From the IMG/VR virus record IMGVR_UViG_3300037346_000623, positions 32,001-96,000 of that record: DNA of 64,000 nt. One strand, 5' to 3'. Under the pieces are notes generated by a model. That model searched no databases. It was not told where the DNA came from and saw nothing but the letters and a program-made list of their open reading frames with translations. The position numbers were made by a program, and so were the translations under genes. The stretch comes from a virus. Shown here in pieces: positions 2,572-63,551 of the stretch; the first letter of the stretch is position 1, and each line of letters begins with the position of its first letter.

Positions 2572-4211
2572 TATAAAGTTACTTGAGGAGACTTTTCCGA
2601 TTCGTCCTCTGCTGCAGGTTTCTCTGCAGCGTCCTCTGCTGCAGGTTCGCCCTCGACTGGAGGAGCAGGAGCTCCCGCTTTTTCTTCTTCCTTTTTATAT
2701 TGTTCATTAAGCTTTAACTGATCCGGAGACATGCCAATGAATCGTTGTATAAGAAAGTCATTATCAAAATATGGAACATCCTCCTCGCCAGCTTTCACTT
2801 TAAGATCGGCAAGAGCAGTTACAAATTCGCTCTTCTTTTTAAGATTCGTCATTTCTACCTGATCCTCAAACTCAAGGTCCCTATTAAAATCAAGTCCTAT
2901 ATTAGCTTTAAAGCTTCTATCCTTAGCCAATTCAGGATATTCCAGACACATTTGTATATAAAGTGGTTTTACTAATATCTCCTGGAATATGGATCTAAGT
3001 CTTCTCAGAAATTTTTCGAATCTTATCTCATCTCTTTCTAATTGGTCTATTGCTATCTGGTAATTAGCAGGGGTTCCATTCTTTGCAGCAAATCTTGCAT
3101 AGGGTATTTTTGAATCCATTTTTAACTTATTGAAAAAATAAAGTACGTTATCCATAACATTAAAATCAGGACCGGAAGGATTCAGCGAAGATATCTCAGG
3201 GGAAACCCCATTTTGTTCGGGAAATAAATAATTTTTATAAAACTGGACTTTAGGTCTACCATTTACAGTAAGTTCTCCTGATGAATCATTAATACTGATT
3301 TCCTCTTTATAATTTGACATGAGTTGTCCCAGAGTTTGCATTGCTTTTTGAGGTGACTGAGTACCTATTGGAATAATGAATTTCATTCTATAACTAGCAT
3401 TCATAACATTCCATATAACCCTAGAATTCTCCATGATTCTAAGTATATTATACGATCTAACTAGTCTTTCAACATAGCTTGTTCTTGATATTGTATTACC
3501 CTTAGCATAAGATATGTAAATGATCTGCTCATTGGTAAGTTTTCTAAACATCTGTGGATTATTAGGATACTGCAACCAAAATTGTTTATATTCATTTTCA
3601 CCAACCTTTTCAACAATAGGTTCAAGAGATACTGCATCCAATTCCTTAAATCCTATTATTTCCTTACCCTTACTATCATATATTATTTCGAATGCTAAAA
3701 ATCCATCTATAATAAACTGTCTAAAATATTGCCAACCCAAAACAGTATTTTGAAATTGAAATATATTATACAATCTATTGAAATGGGAGCTTATCTTTTC
3801 TTTTATATTATCTTTAAGATCTATATTAGAAAAAGATGGCTGAGCAAAATAATTTCTATCATTATAAACTATTGCTTCATCAGTAATAATATCCAATATA
3901 AATTCAATTTCGCCATTTATCGAAAACTTTCTAAGATAATTTCTCTTCTCTATATACGATTTATCGAAATATGCTATATATTTTCTTACCTTGGTATCGT
4001 GATATGATGCTGTCCACTGAAAAGCACTATCTTTAGTATAACCAGTACCCTCCTGATTGAAAAAAGAGCCCTCGGTTCTACCGATAGCTTGCGAGTTTCT
4101 AACAATCATATCATCATATTGCATACCGAATTTGGATATATTACCCAGATTCTTCAATATGTTACCCAATGCCGCTTGATTGGGTTTTAAAAAGTCTAAA
4201 AATCCTGCCAT
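2571..4211 (-). CDS. Portal protein (T4 gp20-like), paralog 2
   Basis: EIEFILDIITDEAI, YFRQFIIDG, LRIMENSRVIW, YFFNKLKMDSKIPYARF and RDEIRFEKFLRRLRSIF match gp20 portal motifs. Confidence 0.85.
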   Translation of the reverse strand: MAGFLDFLKPNQAALGNILKNLGNISKFGMQYDDMIVRNSQAIGRTEGSFFNQEGTGYTKDSAFQWTASYHDTKVRKYIAYFDKSYIEKRNYLRKFSINGEIEFILDIITDEAIVYNDRNYFAQPSFSNIDLKDNIKEKISSHFNRLYNIFQFQNTVLGWQYFRQFIIDGFLAFEIIYDSKGKEIIGFKELDAVSLEPIVEKVGENEYKQFWLQYPNNPQMFRKLTNEQIIYISYAKGNTISRTSYVERLVRSYNILRIMENSRVIWNVMNASYRMKFIIPIGTQSPQKAMQTLGQLMSNYKEEISINDSSGELTVNGRPKVQFYKNYLFPEQNGVSPEISSLNPSGPDFNVMDNVLYFFNKLKMDSKIPYARFAAKNGTPANYQIAIDQLERDEIRFEKFLRRLRSIFQEILVKPLYIQMCLEYPELAKDRSFKANIGLDFNRDLEFEDQVEMTNLKKKSEFVTALADLKVKAGEEDVPYFDNDFLIQRFIGMSPDQLKLNEQYKKEEEKAGAPAPPVEGEPAAEDAAEKPAAEDESEKSPQVTL

Positions 4212-31655: not shown

Positions 31656-32773
31656 TATAACCTTTTCTCTTGTTCTTGATTTATTACTATATTATGGAGC
31701 TTAAATAAGCTTGAAATTATTTTTTCTTTAGTTTCTTCGATAATATCCATAGATTCCACATAAGATCTTATAAAATCAAGAACATTGAATTGACCATTAC
31801 CCTCCGATTCGATCATCTGTTCAGTTAGTGTCGTACTTTTTTCGGGATCATATGGATGAAATTTAAGGAATCTCTGTGTCGTGATTGTATCAGTAAGCAT
31901 ACTGAGCGGAGCCTTTAGTGCCATCATAGGATCAATCATGATATCAACAAAATTATTTCTAAATTTAGGTTCAAGCTCATCTGGAGTTGATTCTAATATA
32001 TCTGTAAAATAAAATTTCTTAAATCTAGGCGAGAATGTATTAGGGTAAACTACCTCGTTCATGTCAGAAAGGTCCAAAAGAGTTATGGATTTTTCATTAT
32101 CCATATCAGATCTTGTTAACTCATAAGGAGATCCTAACATGGTTATATTATCTTGTTTTTGTGCATAATGTATATGACCAGAATAAACTTTTGTAAACTT
32201 CTTAAATTTATTAATGTCAGCACCAGATTCAACATTAACGTACTTATTGAATTTTAGTCCTCTTATATCAGCATGACAGCAAAGAACATCATGAGGTTCT
32301 ATATAATCAAGCGTTTCTGTCTCCGTATTATGATCCTTTCTCCATGGCATAAGGAAGAAATTCTTATCCATTAGTTTAAGTGTAACAGGATCTTCAAATA
32401 TATTTATTCCTGGTATCCATTTTATGGACTTTAGAGAATTGACATCATTTGTATTTTTACCAAATATATCATGATTTCCTATTATCACATATACGCCATC
32501 AGTAAAGATAGCTGATAATTCCTCAGCAATAGATATACCAAGATTAAGTACCTTTAGATTTATACTTTGTCTGGAATCAAAAAAATCACCAAGGTGAATA
32601 AGTACATCACCTGGTTGATAATTTTTTCTTACTAATGGAAAAAACCAATCAAAGAAATACTCCCTTGTCTGGTCTATCCATTCATTTGAATTGTTTCTTA
32701 CACCTAAATGAGTATCCGTTATAAACCAAACTCTCCGTGCTTTATCGTTTACCAACTTTAAATGTTCATTCAT
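31655..32773 (-). CDS. Recombination nuclease (T4 gp47/SbcD/Mre11-like)
   Basis: DTHLG, GDFFD, GNHD, SGHIH metallophosphoesterase motifs. Confidence 0.92.
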   Translation of the reverse strand: MNEHLKLVNDKARRVWFITDTHLGVRNNSNEWIDQTREYFFDWFFPLVRKNYQPGDVLIHLGDFFDSRQSINLKVLNLGISIAEELSAIFTDGVYVIIGNHDIFGKNTNDVNSLKSIKWIPGINIFEDPVTLKLMDKNFFLMPWRKDHNTETETLDYIEPHDVLCCHADIRGLKFNKYVNVESGADINKFKKFTKVYSGHIHYAQKQDNITMLGSPYELTRSDMDNEKSITLLDLSDMNEVVYPNTFSPRFKKFYFTDILESTPDELEPKFRNNFVDIMIDPMMALKAPLSMLTDTITTQRFLKFHPYDPEKSTTLTEQMIESEGNGQFNVLDFIRSYVESMDIIEETKEKIISSLFKLHNIVINQEQEKRL

Positions 32774-55665: not shown

Positions 55666-56319
55666 TTAATATTTTTTTGAATTTTTTATTCTTCCTCTTT
55701 TCCATCACTTCACTATTTCTGTGTTGTTGCTAATCTTTTTTTCCGTTAATTCATTATTTACCCAAATTGTTTCAAATTGTGAATTTTTTTCTCCTAATCA
55801 GTGTCACTTTTTGGAATCTTTCATATTATAAATAGTTTCCTGTGTATGATTTCTTCCTAGAAATGTTTTTTTATCATATCTATCGAATTATACTGATTCG
55901 TGTCTTTTCAACATTGATTTGGATGCTACAATTCTCAACTTTCCTTTAAAATCTTTATCTGATTTTAATTTTCTTTGTAATCCATCACTTCCAGATTTTT
56001 GCCAAATTAATTTATTGGTTTCTGTGCATCCACCTCCGCCTCCTGGCTGTAGATTCATACACATCGGATTGCTTAGAAGATTTTCGTTAGCTATTTCAGT
56101 CTCTTTGTTTTTTAGAGATTCCCTATCATCAAAATATTCCAATATTTCCTTGGCGTATAAATCCTTACCGTGTTTTCTTATAGAATTTCTAATTCTTTTC
56201 CCACTACCAAAATATACATCTTCGAGATTATCCGTCGAGTTCATACCTATATAATATTTACCATTCTTTGTGTTGGCTATCTTATAGATATAATGAAATT
56301 GTTTTTCTTTTCTTGCCAT
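55666..56319 (-). pseudogene. Decayed GIY-YIG (Seg-like) homing endonuclease with NUMOD3-type tail
   Basis: YIYKI...KYYIG...YFGSG. The same frame continues past TAA 55888: FLGRNHTQET..KK*H*LGEKNSQF...*WKRGR to TAA 55666. Confidence 0.85.
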
Positions 56320-58107: not shown

Positions 58108-59598
58108 TTAAATAAATTCAAAATTTCTGAAAGATTCTAAATAATCTAGACTATAGTTTTCCTTTAATTCCTTAATTTTCTTTGAATCTTTATCCCCTAC
58201 AATAGCAGGAACTGAATTGATTGTTTTTAACCCAACAGATACAGCTTTTGGAAATGGTCCCATAAGACCAGCTGAAGATAATTTATCAATTGTTTTTGAT
58301 ACTTTTGGGTATTCATCTGCTAAATCACCTATGAAATCTATCATTGGCTGAGCTATTGGTTTTATGTAAGTTTCTACTAATTTCTTAATAACTTCTAAAG
58401 CAGGTCCTAAGAAAGACTTAAGCGCATTAGCTATTATTTTAGCTGCAGGTGTAACTGCAGATTTTATGAAATTTGATATTGCTTTCGAGAATTTTTCGGG
58501 AAGTGATATAAGGAATTGAAACAATTCTGATATTTTCCCGCCAGCATAAATTATACCGTCAAATACCTTACCTAAAAGACCTTCACAGACCATCAGAAAT
58601 ATTATTGATATTGTTGTAGCTGCAAGAGCAGATCCACCTGACCCCATTATCGCACCGATGCTCTTTGCTGAATTTGTTCCCATTTTACCAACTAGTTTTG
58701 ATGCACCATGTGCTAGGAAATGCTCTGTGCCATGAGCAAATTGACCAGCGAATGTACCTGCCCATTTTTCGGAAGCTTTAAGTGCCGTTGTACTTGATGC
58801 TGCTATACCGGGTATCGCTGCTTTTGGTGCCATTATAACGTCATTTAGGCCTAATAATATAGAACATGAACCAGCTATTACTAATGGTGCTCCTGTGGCT
58901 AGACTTTTTTTAGCCTTTTCTAGTTTTTCCATTTCCATATCTGATAAATATGACCATGCTTTTTTCATTTTATATACGCCTATACCTGTCTCAATTGCAC
59001 CGGCTATTCCTAGTAGTACTGGCCCTAATATCTGACCAGCTGCTGGTATTAATGGGGTAACTGCTGCTGTCATCTGTAGTACTATTGCTACAGTTGTCCA
59101 AAAATTGGAACTAGTTGTTATTTCCTTTATGGCAGATACTATTCTTTTTGTAAATTTCCAAACCCTTTTTGCACCATCTGATATGCTATTCCATATATTT
59201 GCACTCTTGGATTTAACTAAATCTACTGCTGATTTAGCATTAGATTTAACTTTATCCCAAGCTGCTTCCATATCATCAATCATTCCTTCATTTATCGCTT
59301 GCATCGTATAATTATCTATTATAAATGCAGAACCATTTTTAAATAAAACTGTTCCTATATCGCTCTCAAGCATCAATATCTTCTCATCATCGTTGAACCA
59401 GTCTTTCTTATTCTCATAAAGCATTCCCAATTCATACATAGCATACGATTTTTCCAATAGCATCTCCTCCGATTCGGATTCAAATATCTTAGATTCAAAC
59501 ATATTAGAAAATTCTGTCAATGTTAGTTTCACCATTATGTCTTCACTTAACTTTCCAAAATTGCTTGATGAAAGAAATCCATCATATTTATTAATCAT
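58108..59598 (-). CDS. Hypothetical protein with extended hydrophobic/amphipathic helices (possible ejected membrane-interacting virion protein)
   Basis: 496 aa; acidic N-terminus with I/L-x-E sites; Gly/Ala-rich hydrophobic middle. Confidence 0.6.
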   Translation of the reverse strand: MINKYDGFLSSSNFGKLSEDIMVKLTLTEFSNMFESKIFESESEEMLLEKSYAMYELGMLYENKKDWFNDDEKILMLESDIGTVLFKNGSAFIIDNYTMQAINEGMIDDMEAAWDKVKSNAKSAVDLVKSKSANIWNSISDGAKRVWKFTKRIVSAIKEITTSSNFWTTVAIVLQMTAAVTPLIPAAGQILGPVLLGIAGAIETGIGVYKMKKAWSYLSDMEMEKLEKAKKSLATGAPLVIAGSCSILLGLNDVIMAPKAAIPGIAASSTTALKASEKWAGTFAGQFAHGTEHFLAHGASKLVGKMGTNSAKSIGAIMGSGGSALAATTISIIFLMVCEGLLGKVFDGIIYAGGKISELFQFLISLPEKFSKAISNFIKSAVTPAAKIIANALKSFLGPALEVIKKLVETYIKPIAQPMIDFIGDLADEYPKVSKTIDKLSSAGLMGPFPKAVSVGLKTINSVPAIVGDKDSKKIKELKENYSLDYLESFRNFEFI

Positions 59599-59681
59599 TT
59601 TATAAATTTTTCCTTTATATCAAAATTATAAACAACAAAAAAGCCATTCGTATGAATGGCTTTTATAATTTGATAATATTA

Positions 59682-61262
59682 TTAGATAATAATGGCTTCA
59701 ATTTCTCTTAAAATCGCTTTTGGATCAATCTCAGCTTTTTTAATCATCTCATAGATATCAGCAGAGTAACCAAAAAGTTGAACTAATTTGCTACCTGGTT
59801 TGAACATGGTTGTACCATATCCTTGAATATCTACTGTGTAGATGAAAGGCTCACCGTGTGCAGATTTGTAAGATTGGAAAGAACTGTTTGTAACGATTCT
59901 ATCACCACCTTGTAAATCTGATATGATGAAGATACGATCATATTTACCGCTTGTCTGTAAGGTTGAGAAGATTGAACCGAAGTCTGTACCGTGGCCAACT
60001 CTACCCTGTAAGCTTAAACATGTATTTTTTATTGTATTGATACTATCACCTGGGTTATATCTAATACCTTCGGCTGTTGATGCGAATTGATATAAATCAG
60101 CACCGATTCCTTTTGCTAATGTTGCTCCAATAAGAGCAGCTTTATCAATACAGTGTTTGTTTATAGATTTGCCGTTCATCGTAACACCATGTCCCATTCC
60201 GTGCATAGATCCGGATGTATCAATAACAACCGCTGTTCTACCATGCGAGAATAATTCAACTAAGTTTGGTATTGCTAATTCGTAAGCCCTATTCAGGGCA
60301 GTAACAAATGGTCTAGACGCAGAAGCACTAGTTTCTTGTAAAAGAATCTCCAAAGCAATATCTATTTGGTGAGGAAAAACCAAGGATTTCCTGATCAATT
60401 TCTCATCGATTAAAAGCTCACATGCACCGCTAACTAATTCAGAATTTGAACTTGTGTTTATGATGTTTCTTAAATTACGAAGCAATGCCAGGTAACCAAT
60501 TTTTCTGGTTTTAATCAATTCAGCATAGTTGCTTTCTTTAGTCTGTGTCAATTCAACCTCAGCTTGTGCTTTAGTGATTTCCCCAGATTTAACTTTTGCA
60601 GCAACATCTTGACCAGCTTTCGAGTTTTTATCCTCAACCGTATTGAACTGTTTTAATTTACCGGTCATAAGGTCCTTGAAAACCACTTCCATTTGTGGAG
60701 TTGTTGGCTTTGGACGAACCAGGTTAACAACATCAACAAGTGAAACTGCTTTTCCTTTACCTTGATATTTAGCTAATTCGTACGCATCTGCTGATTCTAA
60801 AGCTGCTTTGAAACCTTTCTTCATCGAATTAGGTAATGGCTTACCTGGGTTGAAGTGTTGATAAGCTGCGATAATCTCTAATACGTCATCTAAACGGTAT
60901 ATGATACCACCGGTTTTAGTATTCTTGTCTCTTTTGGAGAAGAATCTTCTGCCTATGGCAGAGCCAGATAGATGTTTAACTAATGATACGGATCCGAAGT
61001 GTGTTACCGATCTCTGACCAACAACTGTTCTAGCGTACACTAGGGCTTTAGCGACGAACTCTATATCTTTCTTGGATAATTCATCAATAAGTTGAATAAA
61101 TCTATTCTCTCTATCTGATAATTTTTCATAGTATGAATTGTCCAATCCAGTGGTAAGAATTGCGATTAATTCCAATTTTGGATCATACTTCACACCTGTT
61201 CCACCTTGGTGGTTTGTAACTGTCTCTACAGTTCTTTTTACTTTTTGATTGTAACGTGACAT
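59682..61262 (-). CDS. rsr: TROVE-domain Ro60/Rsr-like RNA-binding protein with C-terminal vWA domain
   Basis: TNHQGG, SYYE, ALVYAR, YELAKY, LVDVVNLVRPKP, GYLALLRNLRNI, VFPHQI, vWA MIDAS DTSGSM, GTD, IISD.Q. Confidence 0.9.
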   Translation of the reverse strand: MSRYNQKVKRTVETVTNHQGGTGVKYDPKLELIAILTTGLDNSYYEKLSDRENRFIQLIDELSKKDIEFVAKALVYARTVVGQRSVTHFGSVSLVKHLSGSAIGRRFFSKRDKNTKTGGIIYRLDDVLEIIAAYQHFNPGKPLPNSMKKGFKAALESADAYELAKYQGKGKAVSLVDVVNLVRPKPTTPQMEVVFKDLMTGKLKQFNTVEDKNSKAGQDVAAKVKSGEITKAQAEVELTQTKESNYAELIKTRKIGYLALLRNLRNIINTSSNSELVSGACELLIDEKLIRKSLVFPHQIDIALEILLQETSASASRPFVTALNRAYELAIPNLVELFSHGRTAVVIDTSGSMHGMGHGVTMNGKSINKHCIDKAALIGATLAKGIGADLYQFASTAEGIRYNPGDSINTIKNTCLSLQGRVGHGTDFGSIFSTLQTSGKYDRIFIISDLQGGDRIVTNSSFQSYKSAHGEPFIYTVDIQGYGTTMFKPGSKLVQLFGYSADIYEMIKKAEIDPKAILREIEAIII

Positions 61263-61285
61263 GATTATAAATGTTTATATTATAA

Positions 61286-61664
61286 AATTGAGTTATCTGA
61301 AAGATAAAGCATATAGACTATGTCAAATGCAAGATCAATGTCAAAGACCTTCCTCTATCGCAAAGGCAAGGACAAAAACTAAGTCTCTGATGTTAGCCAA
61401 TTATCTGCCTAGTGGTAAAGATTTCTCTTTCTCTATGGCTTTCAGTAACTTGTCTAACAATTGAGTTCTATCTCAGTTTTGTTTATTCTTATAGAAGAAG
61501 CGGAGTGATGAGAGTTCCCTGAGGATCCTCTCTAATTGCTGTATATGATTAATAGTCATTTATCTTATAAGATAATGGCTTGAAGCCATTAATAAAGGAC
61601 CTTATCTCTCCGAATCAAAGCATCAGGGGAATCGGCTTTTGCTTACCCCATCAGCACCTCAATT
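61286..61664 (-). ncRNA. Putative ~380-nt structured RNA between the 307-aa ORF and the TROVE gene
   Basis: Ends pair (AAATTGAG...CTCAATTT). Internal hairpins such as AATGGCT-TCA-AGCCATT and TATCTTATAAGATA. Raised GC; no credible ORF. Confidence 0.55.
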
Positions 61665-61672
61665 TATTTTTT

Positions 61673-62596
61673 TTATTTTTCTAGTTGCTTCAAAAATTCA
61701 TCAACAACTGGCTGAAATCTAGCATCAACATGAATCTTAAGATTTACCGCTTCGCCGATTTTATTTTGGCGTTCCGTCTCAAAATCGTGACTAGCTTTCT
61801 TGTAATCTGCTAACCAGGATTCTCTCTTTTTGGTATATTCATTCATCACAAGAGCATTCTTTTCATTAACCTCAGCCTGAGCATCAGCATTGATTTTAGA
61901 AATCCTTGAATTCTCCTTGGTTACAGAATTCTTAACCTTCGATTTAAAATAATTAACCCTTTGTTCGTATCCCCTATGAAGGGCTGCTAACTCCTCGTGA
62001 GTTTTTAATAAATCCTCTGATTTATGGTGAACTTTAACTTTAATTGGAGTTTTCTTTCCTATTTCAACTTCCATGAACTCAAGGAGTTGAATTTTGGGAA
62101 GCTCAGATCTCAATCGATCTAAAGTTCCATTCTTATGAATAAATTGACCTATATGAGAAGCATAAGCCTCTGCCTCGATAAATTCATTATGCTCGTCTAG
62201 TGAAAGTTGACCCCATCCCCAATCATCAGTAACTTGTGCAGTGATTTCGGGCTGGATGTTAGCTTCTCTTACAGGTGAAGGATTTTGATCCTCATAATCA
62301 AGGTGCTCTCTCTTGATTTCATTTATTAATTCATCTTTGGCCTTGATGTTCTCCATAAGAAAAGCTTGTGTTGCATGCAACCTTGCCTTAGATTTAAGAA
62401 GTTCAACAACATCTGCAGGCAAAGGGTTTGCAGCAGTTAATTGATGATCCTCTTTAGAGATCTTTATCGTTTTTGATGCGTTGTTGATGTCAGCTAAGGC
62501 TGCAGTTATATCCTTAGATCTTTGGTTACAGAGATTTGATACTGATTGAGCCTGTGACATTGATAATCCTTTTTCTGCTAATGAATTTCTTTTCAT
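61673..62596 (-). CDS. Hypothetical helical/coiled-coil protein
   Basis: 307-aa ORF with normal composition. Confidence 0.75.
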   Translation of the reverse strand: MKRNSLAEKGLSMSQAQSVSNLCNQRSKDITAALADINNASKTIKISKEDHQLTAANPLPADVVELLKSKARLHATQAFLMENIKAKDELINEIKREHLDYEDQNPSPVREANIQPEITAQVTDDWGWGQLSLDEHNEFIEAEAYASHIGQFIHKNGTLDRLRSELPKIQLLEFMEVEIGKKTPIKVKVHHKSEDLLKTHEELAALHRGYEQRVNYFKSKVKNSVTKENSRISKINADAQAEVNEKNALVMNEYTKKRESWLADYKKASHDFETERQNKIGEAVNLKIHVDARFQPVVDEFLKQLEK

Positions 62597-62642
62597 AATT
62601 TCTAATTTTTGTTTTTATAATATTTTCTAAATTTACTCTAAT

Positions 62643-62680
62643 AAAAAAGGGATTAAGTCGCTTGGCGTCCTAACCCCTTT
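62643..62680 (-). terminator. Terminator after the Y-RNA-like array
   Basis: AAAGGGGTTAG...TTAATCCCTTTTTT hairpin. Confidence 0.6.
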
Positions 62681-62689
62681 ATAAAACTA

Positions 62690-62830
62690 ACAGAGAATGA
62701 TGTAAGAAGTGTTAACAATTTAATGTCTGATTATGAGTCAGATGACTTAACCACTTGTCTAAATTTCCATTTTGGCGGAAACTATCGGAGTCGAACCGAT
62801 GTGCGATGTAACTTCTATACTTACTACTGT
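62690..62830 (-). ncRNA. Y-RNA-like (YrlA-like) RNA A: circularly permuted tRNA(CAT) opened at the variable loop
   Basis: Order is T-arm ATCGG-TTCGACT-CCGAT, AGTTTCC-GCCAAAAT-GGAAATT, D-arm, TCTGA-CTCATAA-TCAGA; closed by the conserved outer stem. Confidence 0.8.
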
Positions 62831-62840
62831 CGTATGTTTT

Positions 62841-62995
62841 ATAAGGGAATGATGTAAATAGCGTTTTTTCTAACGTGCTCTACCAACTGAGCTATTCCTC
62901 CAAATTTTTAATTTGTTTAGTGGAGGAAGATGGATTCGAACCACCGACACTGTGCTTTCAATGCATGCGAAGTAACTATTTTACTGACCACTTAT
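62841..62995 (-). ncRNA. Y-RNA-like (YrlA-like) RNA B: permuted tRNA opened at the anticodon arm
   Basis: GTGTCGGTGG-TTCGAAT-CCATC, TTCCTCC-loop-GGAGGAA, GCTC-AGTTGGTA-GAGC; outer stem ATAAGTGGT...ATCATTCCCTTAT. Confidence 0.82.
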
Positions 62996-63005
62996 AATAT
63001 GTTTT

Positions 63006-63135
63006 TGTAAGGGAATGACAGGACGAAAGAAATGATGTTTTTGCTGGAGTTGAACCAGCTACCTTAAATACCAAAAATTTACGATCTACCAAATGATCTA
63101 AAAAACGATGAATTTCGTTACCTTTACCACTTACA
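63006..63135 (-). ncRNA. Y-RNA-like RNA C: unpermuted tRNA mimic (TTG loop) extended from the acceptor stem
   Basis: GTTTTT/AAAAAC, GATC D-stem, TAAAT-TTTTGGT-ATTTA, GCTGG-TTCAACT-CCAGC; outer stem TGTAAGTGGT...GTCATTCCCTTACA. Confidence 0.78.
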
Positions 63136-63223
63136 ATAATACTTTTTCAATGAACGTTTTGTGATTTTTATATATAGGAAAATCTTTTTTGTTTCATAAA
63201 AAATCAATATTTTTTAAAAATTT

Positions 63224-63389
63224 AACGTTCTTAGAGATATTGGGAAGAGAATGCTTAGAAAGGGATGCTAATAGTTTTTGCGGGAGTTGAACCCGCGACC
63301 TTAAATATTAAAAATTTACGCCCTACCAACTGGGCTAAAAAACGAAGTAACCTTTCAATTTACCACTAACCAATATTTCTAAGAACGTT
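63224..63389 (-). ncRNA. Y-RNA-like RNA D: unpermuted tRNA mimic (TTA loop) extended from the acceptor stem
   Basis: GTTTTT/AAAAAC, GCCC D-stem, TAAAT-TTTTAAT-ATTTA, GCGGG-TTCAACT-CCCGC; long outer stem AACGTTCTTAGA.ATATTGG/CCAATAT.TCTAAGAACGTT. Confidence 0.78.
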
Positions 63390-63393
63390 TTTG

Positions 63394-63470
63394 TTGGATG
63401 AATGGGAATCGAACCCACATGTGACCAGTTAACCTTTCTATCGCGTATCAGGCGAAGGGTATATCATCCA
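63394..63470 (-). ncRNA. Atypical tRNA-like RNA (GAT loop, no canonical D-arm)
   Basis: TGGATGA/TCATCCA acceptor, GTGGG-TTCGATT-CCCAT T-arm, TCGC-CTGATAC-GCGA hairpin. Confidence 0.55.
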
Positions 63471-63479
63471 ATATTTTTG

Positions 63480-63551
63480 TGACTCTAGAGGGATTCGAAC
63501 CCCCATCTTCTGGGCCGTAACCAGGTGTTCTATCCGTTGAACTATAAAGCC
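63480..63551 (-). tRNA. tRNA-Arg(ACG)
   Basis: GGCTTTA/TAGAGTC, CTGG-TTACGGC-CCAG, GGTTCGAATCC. Confidence 0.85.

Follow-up and report, generated by a model that had tools for sequence, protein, structure and literature searches.

Large, strongly covarying RNAs of bacteria and phages for which no function is known are rare, and earlier examples were later recognized as ribozymes, as riboswitch-like sensors or as assemblies of an unexpected kind. RNAC and RNAD, located in the tRNA gene region of phage T4, are much shorter than the RNA considered here, and we know of no partner protein for either. According to the part of the source available, they are small stable RNAs encoded by the phage whose function is still unexplained (PMC9697503). 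GOLLD and ROOL are described, in the accessible text of PMC12286853, as large and intricately folded RNAs without known function that phages and prophages carry, in many cases close to tRNA islands, with no protein partner identified for ROOL. Here we analyzed a stretch of viral DNA of 64,000 nucleotides (nt), hereafter the window (positions 32,001 to 96,000 of IMG/VR virus record IMGVR_UViG_3300037346_000623), in which a 410-nt gap (61263-61672, minus strand) directly follows the gene for a 307-amino-acid (aa) protein of no assigned family, named p307 (61673..62596, minus strand, from the list of open reading frames, ORFs). Taken as a whole, the reading of this gap as the gene for a large (~385 nt), stable, structured non-coding RNA (ncRNA) that works with p307 and carries putative binding arrays seems to us about evenly balanced; that the RNA class exists is nearly certain, that RNA and p307 form a functional pair is probable, and the mechanism by which the triplet arrays serve for binding is tentative.

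For comparison we used 80 IMG/VR loci obtained from a p307 search (p307 identity 43-88%), or 81 when the window is counted. The RNA would work most like GOLLD and ROOL, to judge by analogy, and recalls T4 RNAC and RNAD, being a member of none of these classes. As with GOLLD and ROOL, it is phage-borne and lies near tRNA islands, a same-strand tRNA array being present within 4 kb upstream and ending shortly before p307 in 34 of 53 loci scanned. In contrast to them, it is smaller, has an obligatory protein-gene partner and gave no match to their covariance models, either with the gap or with seven other members; periodic UUG tracts are not described for GOLLD or ROOL in the available part of the source. 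Three traits make the present RNA distinct: a fixed protein partner without known fold, an unusual periodic single-stranded motif and a hint of circularity.

Evidence for a conserved fold came from alignment A1, which comprised 61 distinct sequences. RNAalifold found helices P1, P2 and P5 unaided, with compensatory changes in 28 of 33 pairs. When 37 hand-picked pairs were scored (these three helices plus P0 and Ha, added by eye), 93.9% of the cells were paired vs. 74.4% in column shuffles, none of 500 shuffles reaching the observed value, and sliding the partner by 1-3 columns left 39.9-52.7% paired. Changes on both sides occurred in 36 of the 37 pairs, with 503 double-change cells observed vs. 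141 in shuffles. Frequent G-U pairs indicated that the RNA strand is the minus strand, the same as that of p307. The existence of the RNA gene, its strand and its core fold were thereby established, in agreement with the structured RNA proposed in the original prediction, which had been made from the letters of the window and a list of its ORFs.

The conserved element extends over ~61279-61669 by conservation and covariation, and the gene itself was placed at 61280..61664, with ends taken from the head-to-tail joint of one metatranscriptome contig (385-nt unit); this gene and all elements that follow are on the minus strand. The long-range outer stem that had been noticed as enclosing the gap is present as P0, a by-eye helix that is conserved and covarying (AAUUGAG at 61658..61664 with CUCAAUU at 61286..61292, or AAAUUGAG at 61665-61658 with CUCAAUUU at 61292-61285). 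Its innermost pair was G:C in 61/61 sequences, the second was UA in 36, AU in 22, GC in 2 and GU in 1 and was never unpaired, and three more pairs were kept in 43-48 of the 61 with several pair types; P0 is more than a chance pairing. An invariant G-U follows its 5' strand and an invariant A-A-C precedes its 3' strand. P1 (61620..61655) is a hairpin with a covarying stem (column pair 15:54 was GC in 31, AU in 25, GU in 3 and UA in 2) and a conserved apical loop, UAAGCAnAAGCCGAU, containing a 2-bp mini-stem. P2, found by RNAalifold and covarying, is a long-range helix (5' strand 61600..61615, 3' strand 61294..61309) with compensatory changes in 13/13 pairs; in the window row the MAFFT register was off by about one base.

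A variable region with gaps, low conservation and lineage-specific hairpins (61501..61599) precedes Ha, a second long-range helix recognized by eye and by covariation, whose 5' strand (CUUCUUCUAU / CGCUUCUUCUAU, 61491..61500) follows a conserved CGC and whose 3' strand (AUAGAGGAAG, 61349..61358) fills exactly the space that separates the hexamer tracts. Six Ha pairs were 99.5% paired and compensatory in 6/6, and one-base indels were matched on the partner strand. P5 (GUUAG/CUAAC, 61392..61458) surrounds a variable insert that holds CUUUACCACU (61411-61420). Conserved AAAACUGAGAUAGAACUCA (61462..61480) has two alternative pairings. The conserved CUGAG may fold locally into a hairpin (UGAG/CUCA) or take part in a long-range helix, AAAACUGAG/CUUAGUUUU, with CUUAGUUUU lying where tract 1 begins; the two are mutually exclusive and each has modest support. 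Near the 3' end lies conserved UAGUCUAUAU (61311..61320), with C-U-A invariant.

The two tracts with 6-nt periodicity reported in the original prediction were present at 61318-61383, and column statistics gave their true unit as NNN-U-(U/A/G)-G, with U and G invariant or nearly so and the spacers variable. Tract 1 (61361..61383, minus strand) reads CUUAG UUUUUG UCCUUG CCUUUG, with UUG or UAG every 6 nt, and tract 2 (61318..61347, minus strand) reads UCUUUG ACAUUG AUCUUG CAUUUG ACAUAG. Nine single-stranded units, four before the Ha 3' strand (CUUAG included) and five after it, carried 1.3-2.0 bits at U and G and 0.0-1.4 bits in the spacers; the two UUG/UAG triplet arrays are the most conserved single-stranded parts of the RNA and keep a strict 6-nt register. 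No conserved ORF was found in the RNA (the best ATG ORFs, on either strand, were of 9-67 aa and none was common to the members), and the frequent occurrence of UAG in place of UUG excludes a reading of the tracts as codons. A tmRNA-like tag frame or a programmed frameshift between the tracts was considered and dropped, as there is no conserved ORF and the Ha helix lies there.

The best reading of the tracts is that they are putative repeated protein-binding sites. TRAP and HutP are ring-shaped oligomers, and the HutP target has its triplets in two blocks, as has the present RNA, which shares with the targets of both proteins conserved triplets set apart by short variable spacers. The differences are that the triplet is here UUG/UAG with 3-nt spacers, that the tracts stand inside a large closed scaffold and not in a 5' leader, and that Pfam found no TRAP or HutP domain in p307.

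The RNA and p307 were found together at all testable loci, whichever of the two was searched for. With nhmmer and blastn the gap sequence was found directly after p307 in nearly all loci, and a profile built from the alignment detected the RNA in 77 of 80. The remaining three break off at p307, which leaves the RNA present in 77/77 testable 3' flanks, the very flanks whose alignment the original prediction had proposed. None of these 77 loci held a second copy. Searched the other way round, IMG/VR returned 78 stretches for a degenerate 26-nt motif taken from tract 1; p307 lay upstream in 67, two were cut by a contig end and nine were short chance matches inside ORFs, which gives 67/67 testable RNA copies with p307 upstream. 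The linkage was maintained despite highly variable flanking genes (32 clusters of upstream ORFs among 74 loci and 42 clusters of downstream ORFs among 73). At the nucleotide level the 3' domain of the RNA was more conserved than the p307 gene in 49 of the 59 loci compared.

A distant p307 lineage, with 25% identity to the window protein, was represented by seven near-identical loci (L165-L171) that keep a reduced RNA of ~290 nt. In this RNA, P0, G-U, P1, UUUACAUG, P2 and a perfect 9-bp Ha were recognized by eye, with UCUUUG/UCUUAG-type repeats flanking the Ha 3' strand on both sides; nhmmer gave no match to it. The distant p307 homologs aligned too loosely to support a search for loci, and a single-protein search with P0247 found nothing. 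The RNA is strictly coupled to p307 across deep divergence, and in large uncultured phages it always stands right after p307, usually at the end of a tRNA cluster, so the module of protein and ncRNA supposed in the original prediction is supported. In L165-L171 a tRNA-like sequence was also seen by eye directly downstream of the reduced RNA (~3352-3620).

Parts of the stretch were present in 24 sequencing runs and the whole in one of them, which may be its source. Four freshwater metatranscriptome runs were examined as contigs, parts of the stretch without RNA-contig cover not being read as silent; runs beyond these that contain 7-14% of its words were not counted as evidence on habitat. Each of the four contained one contig covering the RNA only, of 357-415 nt and depth 7-26: 357 nt over 61299-61653 at depth 12.7 in X20, 415 nt over 61284-61664 at depth 22.1 in X21, 383 nt over 61273-61648 at depth 7.1 in X22, and 368 nt over 61299-61633, plus 32 unlike letters, at depth 26.1 in X8. 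The p307 gene appeared on separate short contigs only (depth 2-4.7), the depth of the RNA being 2-10 times that, and no contig in the four runs bridged the RNA into either flank. RNA libraries contain the RNA, then, as a discrete species. Other relatives contributed extra contigs to the RNA runs; these piled up only on the CUGAGAUAGAACUC region (61443-61481 of the window), with a depth of up to 60.8 in an 8-kb contig, which shows that the same samples hold many divergent copies of the RNA class.

The contig of X21 closes head-to-tail, from 61664 to 61280 (it 'goes back 385'), with 32 letters on the shorter side. In the RNA sense the joint links ...UUUUAUAA to AAUUGAGGU..., and P0 would then end in a loop of 6 nt. 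Such a joint could come from a circular RNA, from end-to-end template jumping if a linear RNA with exactly these ends is abundant, or from tandem copies in that relative; tandem copies were found in none of 77 loci. We regard circularity of the RNA as possible and rather doubtful.

The p307 family is widespread, with 2351 homologous proteins forming 836 clusters at 50% identity, all of ~300 aa, in uncultured phages of up to 435 kb; none was found in isolated phages. It had no match in Pfam, PHROG or NCBIfam; Pfam at E<=0.1 gave a coiled-coil match only, below the family cut-off, no Pfam domain appeared in 20 distant members, and no fusions occurred among the best 150. The AlphaFold (AF2) model is a helical bundle (pLDDT 85.2, pTM 0.76) with an internal two-fold repeat of helix, beta-hairpin and long helix. 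Foldseek with this model, a check suggested by the original prediction, gave no fold match in PDB at E<=0.001; in a wide VIA-align search the best Z was 7.2, within noise for helical proteins; BFVD returned the own family only, and the PDB sequence profile nothing meaningful. In the ESM Atlas there were sub-threshold prefoldin/NFACT-like rows, residues ~117-252 being weakly like prefoldin subunits, which is a lead only.

The surroundings of the module are those of a tRNA and RNA-repair region. In 31 of the 34 loci with an upstream tRNA array the array held at least 5 tRNAs, and some held up to 22 in 4 kb. A gene for a calcineurin-like metallophosphoesterase was found within 3.2 kb downstream in 31/81 loci, and within 70 nt in 12 (examples from the L006-L076 group are L018 5302-5952, L009 5292-5990 and L054 5281-6039); this enzyme may heal RNA ends. 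Complete relatives encode an Rnl1-type ligase in 4/4 and an Rnl2-type ligase in 3/4 cases; no RtcB was found in them, in the window's record (41% complete) or in five related records, and no Rnl2-type ligase in the window's record. The available part of a jumbo-phage comparison presents tRNA provision, together with genes for RNA ligase, phosphoesterase and occasionally TROVE, as a means of RNA repair by which the phages respond when the host attacks translation (PMC7824862). The RNA and p307 are thus a testable pair in the tRNA/RNA-repair region, where giant phages counter host defences directed at translation. In one locus (L070, 5447-6925) a TnpB/IS605 OrfB-like ORF was observed right after the RNA (Cas12f1-like TNB domain, 3.1e-20).

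Under the reading that we prefer, the RNA would be co-transcribed with p307, usually as the last part of a tRNA-island unit, and then released as a discrete RNA with its ends clamped by P0 and P2, the hairpin P1 with its conserved loop at the 5' end and Ha inside. It would act as a ribonucleoprotein with p307, the triplet arrays offering a multivalent surface to a protein that is repeated or oligomeric, p307 being the most probable candidate and a host factor the other, in a binding mode akin to that in which TRAP and HutP read spaced triplets. The particle may act in the tRNA supply or RNA-repair programme of the phage, and the RNA ends may be ligated into a circle. In its strongest form this would be a DNA-encoded circular ribonucleoprotein: a 385-nt RNA cut from the tRNA-island transcript, its P0-held ends sealed into the 6-nt loop by a phage Rnl1-type ligase, with p307 on the two UUG arrays, acting on tRNA or in a conflict with the host over translation and RNA repair. 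We consider this form unlikely; if true, it would be a new kind of giant-phage RNA machine.

Several points weigh against the idea of a stable ncRNA acting with p307. The fold of the single sequence was weakly better than that of shuffles (z = -1.95, with 4 of 100 shuffles doing equally well), for which reason the evidence for structure is the covariation and not the energy. The four runs, from four coded studies, share year, habitat label and library type and may be one campaign; the true ends and levels of an RNA are not visible in contigs, and DNA may be present in RNA libraries. The circular joint occurred in one contig from 1/4 runs, and the contig of X22 continues 7 nt past the joint site. 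On the side of the protein, p307 has no recognisable RNA-binding domain and is near neutral (median isoelectric point 6.3). TRAP prefers GAG/UAG, the tracts here being UUG/UAG. The strict adjacency, finally, may also reflect an RNA that is a 3' element serving p307 expression.

This last alternative can be made explicit as a cis-acting 3' element of the tRNA-island/p307 operon, that is, a decay-resistant 3' untranslated region or terminator that stabilises or autoregulates the message, the RNA species being a stable remnant. Besides the strict p307 linkage, it accounts for the start of the RNA 3-10 nt past the p307 stop codon in most loci, for the U-run after P0 in many and for a further hairpin ~20 nt downstream in several. 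However, a terminator needs far less than an element of ~300-390 nt that has five or more covarying helices as well as invariant triplets in single strands, one or two small ORFs lie between p307 and the RNA in 10 loci, the RNA contigs were deeper than those of p307 and never joined to them, and no terminator-like site was found at 61000-63200; we take a 3' element to be improbable. A similarly low probability is given to a decoy or sponge whose UUG/U-rich arrays sequester a nuclease or RNA-binding protein of the host (Hfq-like, RNase E or an anticodon nuclease) while p307 helps to make or protect the RNA. Multivalent single-stranded triplets on a rigid scaffold would suit such a role, as would a p307 that is not basic, and AGUUUUUG presumably resembles an Sm/Hfq site. 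The module also lies in a jumbo-phage tRNA/RNA-repair neighbourhood of the type described in the accessible text of PMC7824862. On the other hand, a decoy does not account for the retention of p307 beside the RNA even at 25% identity, no partner, complementary or cognate, was recognized, and a scan of genomes for the host matched five metagenome-bin contigs only.

A self-processing ribozyme, group-I-like or other, that excises and circularises itself with p307 as cofactor appears less likely still. The order Ha 5' ... AGACU ... Ha 3' ... AGUCU is that of the strands of a P3/P7 pseudoknot, as in the group I core, with the strongly covarying Ha in the P3 position; GAGACUUAG and CAUAGUCU are taken by us to resemble the group I R and S elements, the size is near that of other large ribozymes, and one RNA contig shows the 385-nt head-to-tail joint. 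Against these likenesses, neither the group I model RF00028 nor any other ribozyme model of Rfam matched at E<=10 on 431 nt or at E<=1 on seven other loci. The P7-like pairing (AGACU/AGUCU) was rejected, with compensatory changes in 0/5 pairs and three pairs unpaired in 18, 12 and 23 of the 61 sequences, and RNAalifold gave no helix in tract 2, which is U/G-rich with conserved UUG, where a P8 hairpin between P3' and P7' would lie. Moreover, the 5' end of the RNA is paired to its 3' end, the joint ends in A and not in G, and there are no exons: the RNA stands after the p307 stop and before unrelated genes (42 downstream clusters in 73 loci) that would not be spliced together, which also led us to reject a group I intron interrupting a gene.

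The window is one of the few loci in which a TROVE/Ro60-like gene follows the RNA (526 aa; 59682..61262, minus strand; Pfam TROVE 8.2e-10, phrog_850 1.1e-32). This gene starts 18 nt past the RNA, and the original prediction had proposed the RNA as its possible cis-regulator, a proposal that found no support, since no TROVE gene follows the RNA outside the window and L002-L005 (4/80 loci; 5/81 with the window). TROVE is a clade-specific neighbour outside the RNA-p307 module. With Ro60 and its Y RNA (YrlA) the present system has in common a protein gene next to a structured RNA and an RNA-repair/tRNA context, TROVE being the next gene in the window; it differs in that the gap has no YrlA match, TROVE is absent from 76/80 related loci and p307 is not a TROVE protein. 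Of the 10-nt match to a Y-like RNA that had been noticed, the complementarity itself stands (CTTTACCACT at 61411-61420 with AGTGGTAAAG at 63122-63131, same strand), but the pairing is not conserved: CUUUACCACU, in the variable P5 insert, occurs in the window and 13 loci, and has a complement nearby only in the window and L004. Among the three closest relatives with upstream DNA, the AGTGGTAAAG-type complement is lacking in L002 and L003 and present in L004. As an observation apart, weak matches lie at 62713-62949 (minus strand), between p307 and the tRNA array, one to tRNA (31.2 bits, 62713-62768) and one to YrlA (62877-62949, 28.2 bits vs. a gathering score of 69), which fits Y-like RNAs accompanying the TROVE gene.

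We hold it very improbable that any of the earlier alternatives is correct, whether a regulator or partner of TROVE/Ro60 and the Y-like RNAs, a template or short ORF of alternating hydrophobic residues, or a protein gene in decay. The closeness of TROVE in the window, the 10-nt complementarity and a NUN-GNN pattern that can be read as codons spoke for them, whereas TROVE is missing from most relatives and the complement from L002 and L003, no reading frame is shared, UUG is often replaced by UAG, and the segment between the tracts is a covarying helix with compensated 1-nt indels.

The search for a known RNA family was negative. In Rfam 15 (4227 models), with 9 kb and with the gap alone, no family reached its gathering score on the element; the best match scored 16.2 bits (E 4.2; gathering score 70), and the smallest E was 0.86 (14.6 bits vs. 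60). Seven diverse other members gave tRNA matches elsewhere only. Y RNA/YrlA was discarded on the grounds given above. RNase P RNA was also discarded, with no bacterial, archaeal or nuclear model matching at E<=10, although we take GAGGAAGGUC to resemble the conserved P4 strand of RNase P, and so was transfer-messenger RNA (tmRNA), ARAGORN finding none in the window and Rfam no tmRNA match in the gap, where there is no conserved frame. In L043 (1040-1571) ARAGORN called a permuted 'tmRNA*' overlapping ordinary tRNA genes of the array, probably a false call. Compared with 50,697 phage records, the DNA of window 59600-63000 was similar only to one uncultured phage, in the TROVE part.

The RNA has not been described before in the literature searched and is reported here as new. 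A screen of IMG/VR for structured RNAs gives, in the part of the source available, motifs of up to 151 nt only (PMC10690425); six of its supplementary files were string-searched without a match, and files 1, 2 and 4, outside the search, may list parts. Sub-motifs of the RNA may thus be among its candidates of <=151 nt.

The whole local gene set of the window is on the minus strand, with tRNA and tRNA-like genes at ~62700-63550 and further ORFs and tRNAs adjoining the TROVE side. Scans of 61000-63200 gave 7 promoter-like sites vs. 8.1 expected and 0 terminators, both uninformative. The window belongs to a 117-kb viral record, estimated to be 41% complete, with T4-like replication genes (UvsX-like recombinase, SbcCD-like gp46/47 and DnaB-like helicase), and its close relatives, of 430-435 kb, have terminal repeats and are complete genomes. 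After TROVE, a 496-aa ORF (58108-59598, minus strand) with long hydrophobic Gly/Ala-rich stretches had weak tape-measure-like PHROG matches (1e-5). ARAGORN called a 'tRNA-Stop', whose anticodon, UUA, would read UAA, at window 63271-63345 (minus strand) and at L058 3849-3926, just before p307 in the latter; despite this call, the stops of p307 and of its neighbours in the window are ordinary ones (code 11). Genes for homing endonucleases were found in or beside the tRNA/RNA region (GIY-YIG SegE-like at window 55888-56319, minus strand; NUMOD3 at L016 5345-6178), which fits a hypervariable region invaded by endonucleases.

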